The translations under genes were made by a program, and so were the position numbers. The notes under the pieces are model-generated. The model searched no databases. It saw only the letters and a program-made list of their open reading frames with translations, and was not told where the DNA came from. From NCBI GenBank assembly GCA_943846605.1, contig OX044361.1, forward strand, positions 2,098,673 to 2,162,672: 64,000 nucleotides of DNA. The letters are read 5' to 3'. Below are positions 26,888 through 38,795 of the stretch, in pieces (within the stretch, counting starts at the first letter, position 1; each line of letters opens with the position of its first letter). Source of the DNA: an uncultured Pseudomonadales bacterium. GTDB lineage: Bacteria; Pseudomonadota; Gammaproteobacteria; Pseudomonadales; Azotimanducaceae.

Positions 26888-27379
26888 ATGCGTATTGGTT
26901 TTTTGGGCATTTGGCTGCTGGCTTCAGTCAGTGCCGGTTCTGTTTGCGCTGAGCAGCAACCGGGCACGCATGATGAGGTTGCAAAAATAGAAGGTCTCTA
27001 TGCCACTTGGCGTGATGCCGTGGAGAAAGGTGACAGACAGGCCTACGTTAGTCTGCTGCACCCGCAAGTGCGGATGCTGCCTCCGGGTGCACCGGCGATT
27101 GACACTGCGGATAGCTATAGCGAATTTTTGCGTCCTGTTTTTGCGATGGCGACCTACACGATAGAAGTTGATCAGGCGCCAGAGGTAGAGGTGATGGGTG
27201 ATGTTGCCGTGGCTCAGTATGACTATACCATCAGCCTAAACCTTAAAAACCCGTCTGTTGGCGTTTCTGAGCCTGGCGCTCTGACCGCGTCGCAGACCTC
27301 AGCACGCTATTTTGATGTGTTGCGTAAGACTGATACCGGTCAATGGCTGGTCTGGCGGCATGGCTGGCAGGTTTGGTAA
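26888..27379 (+). CDS. Exported NTF2-like / SnoaL-like (DUF4440) protein
   Basis: Signal peptide, W..AVEKGD..AY, MLPPGAP, EVMGDVAV, VLRKTDTGQWLV. Confidence 0.8.
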   Translation: MRIGFLGIWLLASVSAGSVCAEQQPGTHDEVAKIEGLYATWRDAVEKGDRQAYVSLLHPQVRMLPPGAPAIDTADSYSEFLRPVFAMATYTIEVDQAPEVEVMGDVAVAQYDYTISLNLKNPSVGVSEPGALTASQTSARYFDVLRKTDTGQWLVWRHGWQVW

Positions 27380-27413
27380 CGATGGCTGTATAGGGTTGCG
27401 AAGGAGCGTGGTG

Positions 27414-29333
27414 ATGCGTCGATATTTTAGTCTTGGGTTGATTTTGATTTTTTGTGCAGTCAGCCATGCGCAAGAGGTTGATTGGCCGGCTTACGGGGGC
27501 AGTGATGGTGGCGGGCACTATTCACCGGCCACGCAAATTAACCGCGAAAATGTCAAGCGCCTGCAGCAGGCGTGGGTCCATCGCTCCGGTGACTTTAAAG
27601 GCGGTGTGCAGTCGTTAACGGAAGTGGTTTCCGAAGAACTGCAATCGAGCCGGCCAACCTCATTCATTGGCACACCGATTGTCACGCAGGGCAAGATGTT
27701 CTATTGCACGCCCTACAATAGAGTGTTTGCGTTGAATCCAGCTACCGGTGAAGAGCTTTGGGTTTTTGACCCCGAAGTTGATATGACCCAAGAGAATTTG
27801 ACCAATTGCCGCGGTGTCAGCAGTTGGGGGGCGGTAACACCGCAGGGCTTGGTCTGTGAGCATCGCATTGTACTGGCGACCCTTGATGCACGGTTGATTG
27901 TTATGGATGGGCAAACCGGGCTGCCCTGCGAATCTTTTGGTGATGGTGGTGAAGTGGACTTGACTCAGGGACTTACTGCACATATCGGCAGTGAATATGG
28001 CGTTACCAGTGCGCCAGCAATTATAGGCGACTTAATTGTGACTGGCGCCTATGTGACCGATAGCATTCGGCAAGACATACCCTCAGGTGTGGTTCGCGCA
28101 TACGATATTCGTTCTGGAGAATTTGTCTGGGGTTGGAATCCCGTTCACCCCGACCTGCCACAGCGTGATGCGCAGGGGAAATTTGTCGCAGCAACAACAA
28201 ACGTTTGGTCGACCATCTCGGTGGACCGCGAGCGAAACTTAGTCATTGTTCCAACCGGTAACTCCTCCCCGGATTATTACGGAGGCGATCGTGAGGGACA
28301 TCAGGATTATTACTCCAGTTCGGTGGTGGCGCTTGACGGCACCACGGGTGAAGTCGTCTGGTCTTACCAAACGGTGCATCATGATATTTGGGACTTTGAT
28401 GTCCCTGCGCAGCCAACATTGACCGATGTCACAATCGATGGGCAAACGCGTGCGGCGGTTGTGCAGGTCACAAAGATGGGGCTGACGTTTGTACTTGATC
28501 TAGAAACCGGTGAGCCATTGCATCCAGTGGAGGAACGGCCTGTTCCGCAAACCGGTCAGGTGCCCGGAGAATATTTATCGCCAACACAACCTTTCCCGCT
28601 CAAACCTAAACCTCTGCATCCGTTGGGTATTACCCCGGATGACGCGTGGGGGTTCACTTTCTGGGATAAGCAAAAATGCCGTGCACTTTTGTCGCAGGCG
28701 ACAACCGGGCCGATATATACGCCGTTGACGACAAAAGGTACGGTGATGTACCCGTCTAATCTCGGCGGTAATAACTGGGGCGCTCCTGCAGTGGATCCTG
28801 AGCGTCAAATTATGATTACGAATACCAAACGCACGCCAATTCAAGTGAAACTTGTGCCGCAGGCTGAGTGTGCGGGCGGTGAGGCATTTCCACAAAAAGG
28901 CTCGCCCTATTGTGCAGAAATGAAGCCGTTAATCTCTCCCTGGGGTGCCCCCTGTACGAAGCCTCCATGGGCAACGTTGGATGCTGTTGATTTATCCTCA
29001 GGTGAAATTCTGTGGAGTGTGCCGTTAGGCACGTTGAAGCATCTGGCGCCGTGGCCGGTGACGTTATTTGTCAAAGGTGGGCTAGAGGCCGGTGGGCCGA
29101 CCGTTACGGCCTCGGGTTTGGTGTTCATTGCTGCGACCTCAGATGGCTATTTCAGGGCATTTGATGTGGATGACGGGGCTGTGCTGTGGGCACATGAATT
29201 ACCAGCGACAGGCAACGCTGTGCCGGTGACGTATATGCACGAGGGTCGGCAGTATGTTGCTGTTGCGGCGGGTGGTCATTTCACCTCACCGCTGCCCTCT
29301 AATGACTTCCTGATCGTATTTGCGTTGCCTTAG
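27414..29333 (+). CDS. PQQ-dependent dehydrogenase, glucose/quinate/shikimate family, soluble periplasmic type
   Basis: AAGGAG RBS before GTG 27411/ATG 27414, signal peptide, CRGVS, GVVRAYD, PTGNSSPDYYGG, HHDIWDFD, GRQYVAVAAGGH. Confidence 0.92.
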   Translation: MRRYFSLGLILIFCAVSHAQEVDWPAYGGSDGGGHYSPATQINRENVKRLQQAWVHRSGDFKGGVQSLTEVVSEELQSSRPTSFIGTPIVTQGKMFYCTPYNRVFALNPATGEELWVFDPEVDMTQENLTNCRGVSSWGAVTPQGLVCEHRIVLATLDARLIVMDGQTGLPCESFGDGGEVDLTQGLTAHIGSEYGVTSAPAIIGDLIVTGAYVTDSIRQDIPSGVVRAYDIRSGEFVWGWNPVHPDLPQRDAQGKFVAATTNVWSTISVDRERNLVIVPTGNSSPDYYGGDREGHQDYYSSSVVALDGTTGEVVWSYQTVHHDIWDFDVPAQPTLTDVTIDGQTRAAVVQVTKMGLTFVLDLETGEPLHPVEERPVPQTGQVPGEYLSPTQPFPLKPKPLHPLGITPDDAWGFTFWDKQKCRALLSQATTGPIYTPLTTKGTVMYPSNLGGNNWGAPAVDPERQIMITNTKRTPIQVKLVPQAECAGGEAFPQKGSPYCAEMKPLISPWGAPCTKPPWATLDAVDLSSGEILWSVPLGTLKHLAPWPVTLFVKGGLEAGGPTVTASGLVFIAATSDGYFRAFDVDDGAVLWAHELPATGNAVPVTYMHEGRQYVAVAAGGHFTSPLPSNDFLIVFALP

Positions 29334-32191: not shown

Positions 32192-33823
32192 ATGACATTG
32201 GCGCAAAAACAACCAGATTATGATGTGATCGCAGTCGGTGCGGGTTTTGCAGGACTGGGATTGATCCACTATATGCGCGAAGCCGGACTATCCGTGCGCG
32301 TATTTGATAAGGCGACAGATATTGGGGGTACCTGGACCTGGAATCGATACCCCGGCGCTGCCAGTGACAGTGAGTGTTATTACTATTGTTTGAGTTTTTC
32401 AAAAGAGTTGCTGCAAGAGTGGCGTTGGTCTGTTCGCTACCCCGGTTGGGAAGAAAATCTCAGTTATATGCATTTTGTTGCCGACAGGTGTGATATGTGG
32501 CCACATATCCAGCTTAATACGGAAATTGTAAGTGCGGATTTTCAGGAAGACACAGGATTTTGGCTGATTAAATCGGCCGACGGCGACGAATTCACCTGCA
32601 AATACTTTACCAGCGCGATGGGTATGATTTCTCAGCCGGTGATCCCTGATTTTAGAAACATGGATAAGTTTCAAGGCCCTTGTTTCCATTCCTCTCGCTG
32701 GCCGCACGAAGGGCTGGACTATGCGGGCAAACGCGTAGCGATTATAGGATCGGGTGCGACCACGGTTCAAATGCTGCCAGTTGTCGCGCAAACAGCGGAA
32801 AGTGTGACGGTCTTTCAGCGCACCGCCAACTTTGTGATGCCTGCTGTGCAAAAAGAGATGACATCCGATTGGGAAAAAGAGATTAAGGACAATTATGACG
32901 AGATCATCAGTAAACGTCGTAATCATGTCTTTGGTATGCCCTTCGACAGCCCCGTCGGGCGTGATCTGGCGGACACACCGGCTGACGAAGTGCAGGCCAT
33001 TCTCGAAGAGCATTGGTCCCGGGGCAGCTTCAGATTCGTTTTTGAGACTTTTGACGATCTGCTCACCAATGCAGAATCAAATCGCATTGCAGGGGACTTT
33101 GTGATCCGTAAAATGCTAGAAAAGGTTAGGGACCCTGACGTGGCAGATATGCTGACACCCAAAGGATATCCTTTTTTTGCCAAGCGTCCGCCTCTGGACC
33201 ACGGGTATCACGAAACATTTAATCGCGAAAACGTAAATCTTGTAGATATCAAAGATCGCGAGCCGATTGTTGAGTTCACATCCACAGGAATTCGCACCAC
33301 GCAAAACGACTATGACTTTGACATTATTGTTCTGGCAACAGGTTTTCAAGCGTATACCGGTGCCCAAGAATCGCTGGCCATTCGTGGTCGCAACGGTCTA
33401 TTGCTGAAGGATAAATGGGAAGAGGTTTCGGCGTCGATTATGGGGGTCTTTGTTGCGGAGTTTCCAAACTTATTTATGGTGACGGGCCCGCAGGCGCCGT
33501 TTGCCAACCTGCCGACGTCGATTGAGCAAAACGCGATGTACATTGCTGACTGCCTCAAAAAAATGGAAGGAGAAGGGTTGGCAATTTGCGAACCAAAGCA
33601 ATCGGCTGAAGATGCATGGGTGGCGGAGACTGCAGCCATTCATGAACAAACACTGATGGCTCAAGGCGACAAAGTGAACTCCTGGATGATGGGTGCAAAC
33701 CTGAAAGACAAAAAACCGCGAGTGCTGATCTATTTTGGTGGCGCCAATGTTTACTACGATAGGATGCGCGAGTCAGTGGAAGCTGGGTTTCCTGAAGTTC
33801 AATTTGAGCAGCAGGTGAGCTAG
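32192..33823 (+). CDS. Type I Baeyer-Villiger monooxygenase
   Basis: GAGFAG, GGTWTWNRYPGA, fingerprint FQGPCFHSSRWP, GSGAT, ATGF. Confidence 0.95.
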   Translation: MTLAQKQPDYDVIAVGAGFAGLGLIHYMREAGLSVRVFDKATDIGGTWTWNRYPGAASDSECYYYCLSFSKELLQEWRWSVRYPGWEENLSYMHFVADRCDMWPHIQLNTEIVSADFQEDTGFWLIKSADGDEFTCKYFTSAMGMISQPVIPDFRNMDKFQGPCFHSSRWPHEGLDYAGKRVAIIGSGATTVQMLPVVAQTAESVTVFQRTANFVMPAVQKEMTSDWEKEIKDNYDEIISKRRNHVFGMPFDSPVGRDLADTPADEVQAILEEHWSRGSFRFVFETFDDLLTNAESNRIAGDFVIRKMLEKVRDPDVADMLTPKGYPFFAKRPPLDHGYHETFNRENVNLVDIKDREPIVEFTSTGIRTTQNDYDFDIIVLATGFQAYTGAQESLAIRGRNGLLLKDKWEEVSASIMGVFVAEFPNLFMVTGPQAPFANLPTSIEQNAMYIADCLKKMEGEGLAICEPKQSAEDAWVAETAAIHEQTLMAQGDKVNSWMMGANLKDKKPRVLIYFGGANVYYDRMRESVEAGFPEVQFEQQVS

Positions 33824-33919: not shown

Positions 33920-34690
33920 ATGAGTAATGAAACCCCTGAAAAAGCAATTTTGGTGGAGCGGCGTGGGCGAGTGATGATCATCACGCTGAATCGACCTGAA
34001 GCGATGAATGCCATTAATGGTGAACTGTCTCATGGCTTGCTGGATGCGGTTAGGGCGTTGGATGACGATGATTCGTTGACGGCGGGAATCATTACGGGCA
34101 ACGGCCGCGCATTTTGTGCGGGTATGGATTTGAAGGCGTTTGCCCGGGGTGAGGATATTGGGCCGCTGACCACTTTTATTCGGGAAGGTTGTTCAAAGCC
34201 TCTGATCGCAGCCATTGAAGGTTTTGCATTAGCCGGTGGTTGTGAAATAGCGCTTACGTGTGATCTCTTAGTTGCCTCGAAAGGGTCTAAAATAGGTATT
34301 CGCGAGGTCAAAGTAGGCCTGTTTGCTGCTGCCGGCGGTGTATTTCGTTTGCCGGCGAGGGTGGGGTATACGCGAGCCATGGAAATGGCCATCACTGGAG
34401 AACCCATCACGGCTGAGGTGGCGCTGGAGAATGGGATGCTCAGCGAACTGACCGAGGCAGGCGGTGCTTTGGATGCTGCGCTTGGATGGGCTGAACGGAT
34501 TGCTGAAAACGCGCCTTTGGCGGTATCTGCCTCCAAATCGCTGGTGCGCGCAGCGGCGCAGGGTTATGACGAGGAAAGTTTGTGGAAAATGCAGGAGCCC
34601 CTGTCGAAGAAAGTGTTTAGCTCCAATGACGCAAAAGAAGGTCCAAAAGCGTTTGCTGAAAAGCGGGCACCTAACTGGACCGGCAGCTAA
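33920..34690 (+). CDS. Enoyl-CoA hydratase/isomerase family protein
   Basis: LNRPEAMNAI, FCAGMDLK, ALAGGCE, REVKVGL, KEGPKAFAEKRAP. Confidence 0.95.
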   Translation: MSNETPEKAILVERRGRVMIITLNRPEAMNAINGELSHGLLDAVRALDDDDSLTAGIITGNGRAFCAGMDLKAFARGEDIGPLTTFIREGCSKPLIAAIEGFALAGGCEIALTCDLLVASKGSKIGIREVKVGLFAAAGGVFRLPARVGYTRAMEMAITGEPITAEVALENGMLSELTEAGGALDAALGWAERIAENAPLAVSASKSLVRAAAQGYDEESLWKMQEPLSKKVFSSNDAKEGPKAFAEKRAPNWTGS

Positions 34691-34750: not shown

Positions 34751-35896
34751 CTATATATCTAAAGGTCGGTAGTAGTCTTTGCCTTGGCTAATATACTCGC
34801 TGATCCTCTGTCTGAATGTATTTCCCGCAGATCCTTCTTCAGTCAGAGTTAAATTCTGTCGGAAGAAGTTAATACTCTCTGGGTTTAACGTCTGGGCGAG
34901 CGCCCAGTAATGGTCTGCTAGATCGTTGTGGCCATGAACTCGAAAAAAGTTGCCCAGACAAAAGGCTGCGTCAGCTTTCAATTGCTCTTTGCTGTGAGTG
35001 CGTATGTTCTCGCTGACCTGTTCTGGTGCGTTGATATAAGGACTGTTTTCGCCGTTCTCGATCCAGTCTTTTAACGCCGGTGTATAAACGTCGTTGCCAA
35101 ATGTGATGGTTTCTTGGCCGTCGCTGATGGCATGGATTTGTGAGTATGTGCCTTCATCAATTCGGACGATCCGCCCTGTTTCGTCGATCCAAGCGGAGGA
35201 GGGAACGTTGACGAAGTTGAACAGACTGCTGATGCGGTGATTTTCGTCCACAATTTGTATGTAGGTTGCGCCAGCCGCGTCAAAAATGGGCCCCGCAACG
35301 GCTTCGCCCCCTGTGTCCTGCGCGGCGCAGATGATGACAAAATCAGGATTGTCGATTTCTTCATATATACGTTGCCACACGGGCACGTCTAGATAGCATC
35401 CTCACCAAGATGACCAAGTGACGATCAGTGCTTTTTTACCTTTGAAGTCTGACATTCGAATGACGGCGCCCTTGCGATCGGTCAATTCAAATTCCGGTGC
35501 CATTGCTGCTGATAGCGTGGATTCGCGTTTTGCTGGTATTTCGGCAAAGCTCCAGACTCGATTTTGGGTGTCTGCAACGAACGGTTGGCCGATGAAACGT
35601 GCGAAAGCGCTGAGGTTGAACCAGTTCTGGTCGGCAAGGGTTACGTTAAAGGTGTCTTGCAGCGGAATACATAGATCTCCAAGGCATACGCCCTCAGCTT
35701 TGACTTCAAAACCATTGATTCGGGTTAGGTCCTCTGCCCGTATAAGGAGTTCGTCGTCCGCACCGGTAGTGCTCAGGGTCAGCGTTTTGCCTTGGTAAAG
35801 TACACTGGTGCTGCCCGGAGGGTGAAGGGCGCTAGTTGTGAATGGGTGCCGGAGTTGCGGAAACGCCATCATGGGTTTAGCCATAAGCCTCATCAA
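34751..35896 (-). CDS. Thioredoxin-fold/peroxiredoxin-like selenoprotein (ResA-like WAxxUGC type); Sec at UGA 35404-35402
   Basis: The two track ORFs are in the same frame: ...ACT TGG TCA TCT TGG TGA GGA TGC TAT CTA GAC GTG CCC GTG TGG = TWSSW-U-GCYLDVPVW. The AhpC/TSA-like segment (APEFELTDRKG..MSDFKGKKALIV) continues after UGA with NVPSSAWIDETGRIV. Confidence 0.88.
35362..35395 (-). promoter_or_regulatory. Bacterial SECIS-like hairpin
   Basis: mRNA UAUCUAG-ACG-UGCC-[CGUGU]-GGCA-A-CGU-AUAUAUG. The apical loop starts 21 nt after UGA and has G at position 2 followed by U, fitting the bacterial SECIS consensus as I recall it. Confidence 0.65.
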
Positions 35897-36063
35897 TTTT
35901 TTTTGTTTGGACTTTCATCCTAGTTGATCTAGGTCGCTGGGAATAGCTGTATCCGCACGATATGTTTTTTATGGGCTTAAAATTTCTATCCATTTGAGCC
36001 ACTCGAGTACGGTCCTGGCTCGTGACAGGGTATCCTAGGGGAATAGTTTTTGAGGATGAAAAA

Positions 36064-36558
36064 GTGACGCAGTTTAAAATAGAGGTAAATGGGCAAACGC
36101 ATGAACTGGATGTTAGTCCTGAAATGCCCCTGCTGTGGGTGTTGCGAGACAAATTAAAGCTCAAGGGAACCAAGTATGGCTGTGGAATCTCGCAGTGCGG
36201 CGCGTGTACCGTGCACGTGGATGGTGTTGCCGTTCGCTCTTGTGTGCTGCCTATTGCTGCGGTCACTTCGGCCGTAACGACCATTGAGGGCCTTGCTGAT
36301 GGTGGCGATTTGCACCCGTTACAAAGTGCGTGGATTGAGCACGATGTGCCGCAGTGTGGCTATTGTCAGTCGGGCCAGATCATGAGTGCAGCGGCTTTAC
36401 TGTCCAACACGCCTCAGCCCAGTGATGAGGACATTGATGCCGCGATGGCGGGTAATTATTGTCGCTGTGGCACCTACATCAGAATTCGCAAAGCGGTGCA
36501 TACGGCAGCGTCCTACTATGATGCAAGCGCGCCGAGTGCAATCGGAGACAAAGGATGA
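36064..36558 (+). CDS. iorA: (2Fe-2S)-binding small subunit, isoquinoline 1-oxidoreductase alpha-like
   Basis: [37 protein letters not shown]; GAGGA RBS before GTG 36064. Confidence 0.92.
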
Positions 36559-38795
36559 ATGAAGTTAAATTAAGTCGGCGCAAGCTCTTTAAAGCCAGCG
36601 CTTTAGCCGGGGGTGGTTTTTTACTGCAGATGGCGCTGCCAATATCGGTATTAGCCGCAGAAAAAGACACTCTGGTGCGCTCGAAAGCGCTCAACGTATA
36701 TGTACAGATTGATGCTGACGGGCAGATCACCATTTATTCGGCGCACCCCGAAATGGGGCAAGGCATTATGACCTCTTTGCCCATGATTGTTGCCGAGGAA
36801 ATGGGTGCTAATTGGGAAGATGTGAAAGTTTTGCAGGCACCGGTAGACACCGCCCAGTTTGGTTTTCAAGGTGCAGGAGGGTCTACTTCTATCCCCAGAA
36901 ATTATCAGGCGATGCGCGAGATGGGTGCGTCGGCACGCGAGATGTTAATTGCTGCAGCGGCTCTGTTAATGGAGGTAGATACGCAAGATCTGGAGGCGCG
37001 AAACAGCGAGGTGGTGCATGCTTCGGGCAACCGTCGAACGTTCGGTCAACTGGCTGCGTTGGCCGCGCAGCAAGAAATGCCTGATCCAGAAATGTTGTCT
37101 TTTAAAGATCCGCGTGCTTACACCATTATTGGCACTTCGGTGGGTGGTGTGGACAACTTGGTGATTGCGACAGGCCAATCCCAATTTGGTATTGATGTGG
37201 ATTTGCCAGGCATGAAATATGCGACCTACTCGCGTTGTCCTCGGCTCGGGGGGAAGGCTGTTGCATTTAATGAAGTTGAAATCAAAAAGCTGCCGGGGGT
37301 GACGGACGCTTTTATCTTGCAACCCGATGCGCGGGCCGGCAAGGCCTCAATGTCGTTTATACAAGGCATGGCCTCTTTAAGAGGGGGCGTTGCCATCATC
37401 GGCAACGATACCTGGTCGGTCATTGATGCAAAAAACAAATTAAAAGTGCAGTGGGATGAAACCGCGTCATCAGATGACAGCTGGTCGGGGATGGTTCAAC
37501 AAGCGCAAGCGTTGGCACGTTCAGATCACGGGGAGGTCAAGCGCGATGATGATCAACTAGAGGCTGCGATGTCAGATCCAAGTCATCTTGCTTTGGAATC
37601 GTTTTATGAATTTCCCTTCGTAGCACATGTTTGCATGGAGCCGATGAATTGCACCGCGCATTTCATTAAGGGGCGGGGTGGCGAACCAGATTCAATGGAA
37701 CTTTGGATGGGCAGTCAGTTTCCAGCACAGGCTAAAGAAATAGCCAGCAATATGTTGGGTATCGCACCGGAAAACGTGAAGGTTAACCTGAAGCGTCTTG
37801 GCGGTGGATTCGGGAGAAGGGCCATCCATGACTTTGCTGCCGAAGCGATGGCAATCGCTTACCGGGTAGACGGCCCGGTTAAGCTAACTTGGACGCGCAC
37901 GGATGATATTCACCATGACTTTTTTAGGGTTGGTGGGTTTGAGAATATGCGTGCGGCAATTGATGCCAATGGCAAGCTTGCCGCATGGGATCAACATTAC
38001 ATTGGTTTTGCGCATGATCAGAAACCTGTCATTGGTTCAGGTTTCAGGGGTAACGAGCTGCCGATGACGGTTTTAGAGCGAGCCAGAGTTCGTCAGTCGA
38101 TGATTGCTTTAGATACGCCGTGCGGCGCTTGGCGGGCACCGGGAGCCAATACCAATGCGTTTGTGGAACAGAGTTTCATTCACGAGCTTGCCGTCTTGGC
38201 ACAGCGCGATCATGTTGAGTTCTTGATTGAGCTGATGGGCGCGCGGCGTTGGACAGCTGAGGGTAATGTCAATGCCCTCAATACCGGACGTGCCATTGAT
38301 GTGATTAAAATGGCTGCTGAAAAAGCCGCTTGGGGTAAGCCAATGCCATCAGGTTCGGCGCAGGGTTTTGCATTTTATTTCTGTCATGCGGCGCATATTG
38401 CACAAGTTGCAGAAGTGTCGGTGGATGGTAGCGGTAATTATCACGTCGATAAGGTGGTTGTCGCCGTAGACGTTGGCCCAATAATCAATCGTAGCGGTGC
38501 ACTGAGTCAGGTAGAGGGGTCGATAATCGACGGGTTAAGCACAATGGCAGGGCAACAGATTACGATGGAAAAAGGCGTGATTGAGCAGGACAATTTTCAT
38601 CAATATCCGGTAACGCGGATTGCTCAGACACCTAAGATCGAGGTTCATTTTATTGAGAGCGACCATCCCTCGACTGGCTTGGGGGAGCCTGCGCTTCCGC
38701 CTTTGGCTCCGGCGGTGACCAATGCTATTTTTGCGGCGACCGGTGACCGTATTCGATCCATGCCATTGAGTGCGCAGGGCTACCAGTTGGTTTGA
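36555..38795 (+). CDS. iorB: Molybdopterin-binding large subunit, isoquinoline 1-oxidoreductase beta-like, Tat-exported
   Basis: SRRKLFK Tat motif, [32 protein letters not shown]; ATGA overlap with the small subunit. Confidence 0.92.

Follow-up and report, generated by a model that had tools for sequence, protein, structure and literature searches.

The window analysed here is a 64,000-nucleotide stretch of DNA from an uncultured Pseudomonadales bacterium. Between positions 27312 and 41994 it carries a series of oxidative catabolic genes, amid which the gene studied here, at 34751..35884, is the only one on the minus strand. Its neighbours encode a PQQ dehydrogenase (27312-29333), a monooxygenase of the FMO/Baeyer-Villiger type (32192-33823), an enoyl-CoA hydratase (33920-34690), a 2Fe-2S and molybdopterin hydroxylase pair (36022-38795), and an amidohydrolase together with a cytochrome P450 (38851-41994). 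This arrangement is not conserved in the orthologues. Strong matches to the flanking genes (>70% identity) were found at only 2 of 12 orthologue loci, and on different sides of the gene. No neighbouring family recurred at more than 9 of about 88 loci, and those that did recur tracked lineage, so that we found no conserved neighbour that would point to a substrate.

One reading frame with a single internal TGA

Two minus-strand open reading frames, of 164 aa (35402-35896) and 211 aa (34751-35386), lie in the same frame with a lone TGA at 35404-35402 between them, as the initial annotation had proposed. Read-through of the joined frame gives the sequence KKALIVTWSSW-U-GCYLDVPVWQRIY around this codon. 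The complete coding sequence (34751..35884, minus strand) is a single frame with one TGA that ends in a TAG stop codon at 34753-34751 and specifies 377 residues, including a predicted selenocysteine, Sec161 (U161), encoded at 35402..35404. The assignment of U161, which falls in the motif W-S-S-W-U-G-C, is based on the TGA/Cys column among homologues and on alignment to CxxC proteins. Orthologues conserve 160 codons before the TGA and 216 after it; the latter figure had earlier been given for the codons beyond GGA TGC, which in fact number 214, as 216 counts GGA and TGC too. We also moved the likely start from the TTG at 35896 to the ATG at 35884, because 11 orthologues share a Met at MAxxxMAxPELRHPF in the alignment and have stops shortly upstream. 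Gene callers were expected to split this gene, and indeed 108 of the best 120 database matches are C-terminal halves of ~211-220 aa; the 211-aa C-terminal product of the window gene itself stands in the databases as P0002. The two open reading frames are one 377-residue gene.

We compared the codon at the motif column across 89 homologous loci from many phyla and found TGA in 20, TGC or TGT in 69, and nothing else. Homologues with Cys at this site, a check that the initial annotation had suggested, were found in abundance (69/89, against 20/89 with TGA), and Trp was never found there. The TGA of the 20 loci, which represent several phyla, always falls in the same column. The full-length database homologues are single open reading frames of 372–401 aa that share 45–51% identity with the window protein. 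At the UGA column they have Cys, within the overlapping invariant motifs WASWCGC and W-C-G-C-x-L-D-V. In 41 related genomes, all 22 long-form matches, among them a second copy in the source genome, contained exactly one in-frame TGA, a pattern that is far beyond chance. The 216 codons 3’ of the TGA stay open, and the protein segment that they encode is 63–76% identical to that of the orthologues.

This second copy of the gene (locus L021, G000:C1:3500599-3501729, minus strand) is 59% identical, has its own in-frame TGA, and carries the same hairpin as that described below for the window gene (AUGUGCC-CGUGU-GGCAGCAU). As many as four members of the family occur in a single related genome, and the subfamilies lie near 65%, 43%, 34%, and 30% identity.

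Selenocysteine machinery and a candidate SECIS hairpin

The genome from which the window is taken (one 3.56-Mb contig, 99.6% complete) was searched for the selenocysteine machinery, as the initial annotation had advised, and all of its parts were found. Matches to selA (519.7 bits), selB (409.7 bits), and selD (268.1 bits) were each above the curated cut-off, and ARAGORN detected a tRNA-SeC with the anticodon TCA. All four genes lie inside ~10 kb, at 3.014–3.024 Mb. TGA terminates 10 of the 29 long open reading frames within the 64-kb window, indicating that it is an ordinary stop codon there and that the genetic code is standard. In our sample of related genomes, selA was present in 21 of the 24 genomes that belong to the same genus, in 1 of the 16 from other genera, and in 10 of the 11 relatives bearing the TGA form, the exception being a 520-contig draft; these counts describe a pattern and are not a statistical test. 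Judged from sequence, the TGA at 35404-35402 is a selenocysteine codon.

The machinery genes form a compact cluster, with selA, selB, and tRNA-Sec contiguous on one strand (G000:C1:3014385-3018363) and selD ~5 kb further. The selD match (locus L018, G000:C1:3023567-3024472, minus strand) lies inside an open frame of 723 aa, over twice as long as a usual SelD; this is probably an NADH dehydrogenase-SelD fusion like that mentioned in PMC2398784.

A candidate bacterial SECIS hairpin (stem strands ACGUGCC and GGCA(A)ACGU, loop CGUGU) is found at 35369..35388 on the minus strand, nucleotides +17 to +36 from the U of the UGA. All 20 TGA forms have a hairpin of 5–7 bp at 17–36 nucleotides past this U, and stems of 5 bp or more in the SECIS register were present in 20/20 TGA forms compared to 19/69 Cys forms. 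Among the Cys forms that share the peptide D-[LV]-[PS]-x-W-Q, 14 of 26 have the hairpin, which indicates that the peptide accounts for part of the hairpin but not for all of it. In more remote Sec clades, this position is taken by CCUGCC-CGGGU-GGCAGG or CCUGUC-AGGUU-GGCAGG, and the apical loop CGUGU of the window gene contains the G/U expected in the loop of a bacterial SECIS.

In a codon alignment of 12 orthologues, 48 four-fold codons are fully conserved at the amino acid level, and only 2 of these are restricted to a single codon, both in the hairpin. Within the hairpin, Val +6 and Val +8 are encoded by GTG in 12/12 orthologues and Pro +7 by CCC in 11/11, while Val codons outside the hairpin in the same gene use all four forms. 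The GTG at 35386, which is the table-11 start of the 211-aa open reading frame, is the Val +6 codon itself. This freezing of synonymous sites points to constraint at the RNA level and is the clearest evidence for it. In the pair count, 92.9% of cells were paired, compared to 14–60% with the partner slid. Covariation in the hairpin is weak, with one compensatory pair (CG 8, UA 3, unpaired 3), and the observed score was equalled or exceeded in 28 of 500 shuffles. The folding energy of the 71-nt segment of the window was unremarkable against shuffles (z = 0.58), mean minimum free energies did not discriminate TGA forms from Cys forms (−9.8 versus −9.6 kcal/mol), and a search of Rfam at permissive thresholds returned no family, only two chance matches. 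Of the RNA folding tests, the register-specific hairpin test alone was informative.

Hairpins of 6 bp, such as CUGCC-CGGCU-GGCAG, also occur in the SECIS register of six Cys forms (L058, L060, L061, L078, L091, and L108), which fall outside the Sec-containing subtree of the phylogeny described below. Their hairpins could be relics of a Sec ancestor, or could be due to the coding of L-P-x-W-Q in GC-rich genomes.

Domain architecture, family, and predicted location

AlphaFold2 modelling from a 66-sequence alignment gave a confident three-domain prediction (pLDDT 93.5, pTM 0.91). The N-terminal domain (approximately residues 22–125; 35510..35821, minus strand) is mostly β and places C67 (35686-35684) and C72 (35671-35669) on a β-hairpin. 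These two residues, noted initially within the sequence GVCLGDLC, form a CxxxxC pair that is invariant in 66 sequences and provides the only invariant columns in the alignment of this domain. The extra N-terminal domain that had been suspected is thus present and conserved, and it was also predicted well on its own (pLDDT 88). It matched no family in Pfam and nothing significant among PDB folds (best E 0.22, TM < 0.45). A weak match of the whole protein to tRNA_bind_3 (E 0.0017) was not reproduced with the N-terminal domain alone.

The central domain (approximately residues 126–262; 35099..35509, minus strand) has a ResA/TlpA-like thioredoxin fold and contains U161-G-C163. In the 381-residue translation from TTG 35896, residues 132–249 match the Pfam families Redoxin (PF08534, 1.5e-08) and AhpC-TSA (PF00578, 7.1e-08). 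HMM matches to structures of the ResA/TlpA type have E values of 1e-24 to 1e-17, and the phmmer match to 3kcm is 3.8e-15. The best Foldseek matches for this region were 3kcm, 4nmu, and 1st9/2f9s (ResA), with TM scores on the target of 0.74–0.81 and rmsd values of 1.6–2.0 Å. In the alignment to 3kcm and ResA, U161 and C163 match the first and second Cys of WCxxC, respectively, and one residue is missing from the motif, in agreement with the initial placement of the TGA at the redox-motif position of a thioredoxin-fold domain. Outside the motif, D213, H216, N226-V-P228, W232, E235, W274, and R342 are invariant family-wide.

The domain shares with the ResA/TlpA/CcmG-type reductases (PDB 1st9, 1jfu, and 3kcm) a thioredoxin fold with a central insertion (TM 0.74–0.81) and an active site at the N-terminus of a helix after a Trp, and its V-P aligns with the G-V-P of the templates, at the cis-Pro position of the thioredoxin fold. 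However, these reductases have a C-x-x-C active site, which is absent here; the window protein has U-x-C, with selenium for sulfur and one residue fewer than in WCPPC, and U/C-G-C is invariant across the family. The U-x-C spacing that had been remarked on as unusual is therefore real, but it is typical for the whole family and not special to the window gene. The peroxiredoxin motif P-x-x-x-T-x-x-C/U is also absent, as U161 is preceded by I-V-T-W-S-S-W, which has Ile rather than Pro at −7 and Ser rather than Thr at −3.

The C-terminal region (approximately residues 267–377; 34754..35086, minus strand), which carries the invariant R342, is all-helical in the model (H267-280, H287-293, H299-316, H320-333, H338-346, and H355-366). 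The C-terminal TPR-like helix pair that had been proposed is present and conserved: one such pair is predicted at approximately residues 299–333 (34886-34990, minus strand) by the model and by alignment to a TPR profile, profile positions 304–344 align with consensus TPR repeats, and some homologues have precomputed PF00515/PF07719 matches.

The link to a WAxxUGC ResA-like family, made from the sequence at the outset, held as homology. The protein matches the NCBIfam model NF041054 (‘WAxxUGC_long’) at 234.9 bits (E 1.6e-69) over profile positions 7–322 of 354. The homology thus spans almost the whole length, and the three-part layout and the U/C-G-C motif are shared. However, this score lies below the curated cut-off of 300 bits, and the W-A-x-x-U/C-G-C motif of the model does not occur in the window’s clade, in which Ser replaces Ala throughout (W-S-S-W in place of W-A-S-W, giving W-S-S-W-U-G-C). 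We scored ten members against the model, the window protein and nine others. The window’s clade scored 229–250 bits, other Sec clades 234–286 bits, and the full-length Cys forms P0009 and L058 275 and 291 bits, respectively. Only L099, a Cellvibrionales Cys form that is 27% identical to the window protein, passed the cut-off, at 529.8 bits.

In the literature, ‘WAxxUGC’ as a search term returned no papers. Table 2 of the 2008 GOS survey by Zhang and Gladyshev (PMC2398784) lists a ‘Prx-like (UGC-containing)’ family in pfam00578, with 46 Sec and 855 Cys sequences, a ‘UGC-containing Prx-like protein’ is listed in PMC9312934, and the UGC-containing Prx-like/TlpA family appears in reviews of 2022 and 2026 (PMC9312934, PMC13188914), in which MBL6689828.1 and MDE0950781.1 are named as examples. 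The window protein resembles these selenoproteins in its U-G-C motif, which lies, as in the GOS family, in a pfam00578-type domain (AhpC-TSA/Redoxin, cd02966-type thioredoxin fold), and also in having many Cys homologues and in the association with aquatic and marine bacteria. We infer that it belongs to this UGC-containing family, with the three-domain long form equated to the family by motif and domain only. The family entries in these sources (PMC2398784, PMC9312934, PMC13188914) do not describe an N-terminal CxxxxC domain, a TPR part, or a leaderless clade. The window gene is therefore a solid, unsurprising member of a family that had been catalogued before.

In an unrooted maximum-likelihood tree, the window protein falls in an all-Sec clade of 10 rows with 100/100 support and deep branches. 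This clade is nested in a 29-row subtree that holds every Sec form as well as two nested Cys clades. On this unrooted tree, the distribution of Sec requires at least 3 changes, consistent with a single gain and two reversions. We found no hydrophobic N-terminal stretch in 11 orthologues of the window protein, where the maximum 12-residue Kyte-Doolittle mean was ≤1.1 and stops occur shortly upstream, a result that comes from a crude hydrophobicity scan rather than a dedicated signal-peptide predictor. In contrast, leaders of the Sec or twin-arginine type are found in the sister clades, whether these have Sec or Cys in the motif. Having no signal peptide, the WSSW-U-GC clade is probably cytoplasmic, whereas its relatives are exported. 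This also sets it apart from the ResA/TlpA/CcmG proteins, which are extracytoplasmic, whereas the window’s clade has neither signal peptide nor membrane anchor and has two extra domains.

Two Cys forms, from an Acidimicrobiia MAG (L057:3902-5074) and an Acidobacteria MAG (L059:3878-5050), carry the twin-arginine-like leaders RRDFIQLG and RRNFLKIG, which suggests that some family members are exported already folded.

Competing explanations and a proposed mechanism

We considered whether the TGA might instead mark a nonsense pseudogene, a dead gene in which a Cys codon, TGC or TGT, had become TGA. TGA is indeed one base from the TGC/TGT of the 69 homologues, and the public gene calls hold only the two halves. 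However, 20 loci of several phyla retain this TGA, as do both of the diverged copies in the source genome, the 216 downstream codons are open and encode protein with 63–76% identity to the orthologues, the all-Sec clade is deeply branched and supported at 100/100, and the genome has the Sec machinery; this conservation effectively refutes the idea. It is only slightly easier to imagine two genes, a 160-aa N-terminal protein ending at the TGA and a 211-aa protein starting from GTG 35386. Both open reading frames exist under table 11, and the databases hold the 211-aa product (P0002), yet the boundary between the two products would fall at the active-site helix of the thioredoxin fold, homologues of the Cys form consist of one open reading frame of 372–401 aa, and GTG 35386 lies inside the conserved hairpin and corresponds to an internal Val in every homologue. 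We consider this arrangement very improbable, and the same is true of a UGA decoded as some other residue, such as Trp or Cys, by near-cognate read-through or a reassigned code. Although the assignment of Sec here is sequence-based, which leaves some room for such decoding, TGA ends 10 of the 29 long open reading frames of the window, as in a standard code, the homologues have Cys and never Trp at the UGA column, and the gene has a dedicated hairpin in a genome with a complete Sec system.

A different kind of alternative accepts the selenoprotein and questions its chemistry. U-G-C, C67/C72, H216, and D213 could form a metal or metalloid site (Cu, Hg, or As; Sco-type), or the protein could be a peroxidase. 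The CxC spacing is atypical for thioredoxin-fold reductases, and four invariant Cys/Sec residues with an invariant His and Asp would suit a metal site, while a weak GSHPx match (E 0.014) and the literature name ‘Prx-like’ are in line with a peroxidase. Against this, the best sequence and fold matches are to the reductases ResA, TlpA, StoA, and Etrx and not to Sco or Prx, the Prx PxxxTxxC motif is absent, and metal-handling neighbours do not recur. Such chemistry is unlikely, if still worth bearing in mind.

The reading that we favour, with a probability of about 0.9, is that the whole locus is explained by one 377-residue gene for a ResA/TlpA-type protein in which UGA is decoded as Sec161 and which would act as a thiol/selenol-disulfide oxidoreductase. 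SelB and Sec-tRNA(Sec) would decode the UGA at 35404-35402, directed by the candidate hairpin 17–36 nucleotides downstream. Sec161 sits at the N-terminus of the active-site helix, in the place of the attacking Cys of CxxC, with Cys163 in the resolving position and the deletion of one residue giving U-G-C. By homology, the enzyme would cycle between the selenol/thiol form and a strained selenenylsulfide, and the Cys pair of the N-terminal domain and the TPR part may serve in substrate binding or recognition or as an electron relay; both the catalytic cycle and the role of C67/C72 are extrapolated from related proteins.

More tentatively, the leaderless WSSW-U-GC clade may be a distinct cytoplasmic selenoenzyme, in which the new N-terminal fold with C67-x4-C72 would provide a second centre, of redox or metal type, through which electrons or a ligand pass to and from the strained selenenylsulfide of U161-G-C163. 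We regard this as conceivable but somewhat doubtful. If true, the two centres would form a relay, and the substrate would differ from those of the ResA/TlpA proteins.

What is new here is modest: a clade that is missed by the NF041054 model, split in the databases, leaderless, and equipped with an N-terminal domain without a solved relative. In practical terms, the window gene and hundreds of close relatives stand in public databases as two meaningless halves. Because its members score under the cut-off, the window’s clade is missed by the curated NCBIfam model, and a clade-specific model would mend many annotations in marine Gammaproteobacteria. The family entries in PMC2398784, PMC9312934, and PMC13188914 include no member with a described function. 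Knowledge of selenoproteins is unchanged by this finding; the family nonetheless provides a natural series of Sec and Cys forms of one strained C-x-C redox motif, together with an N-terminal domain that has no solved relative, and is a reasonable target for structural and enzymological work.
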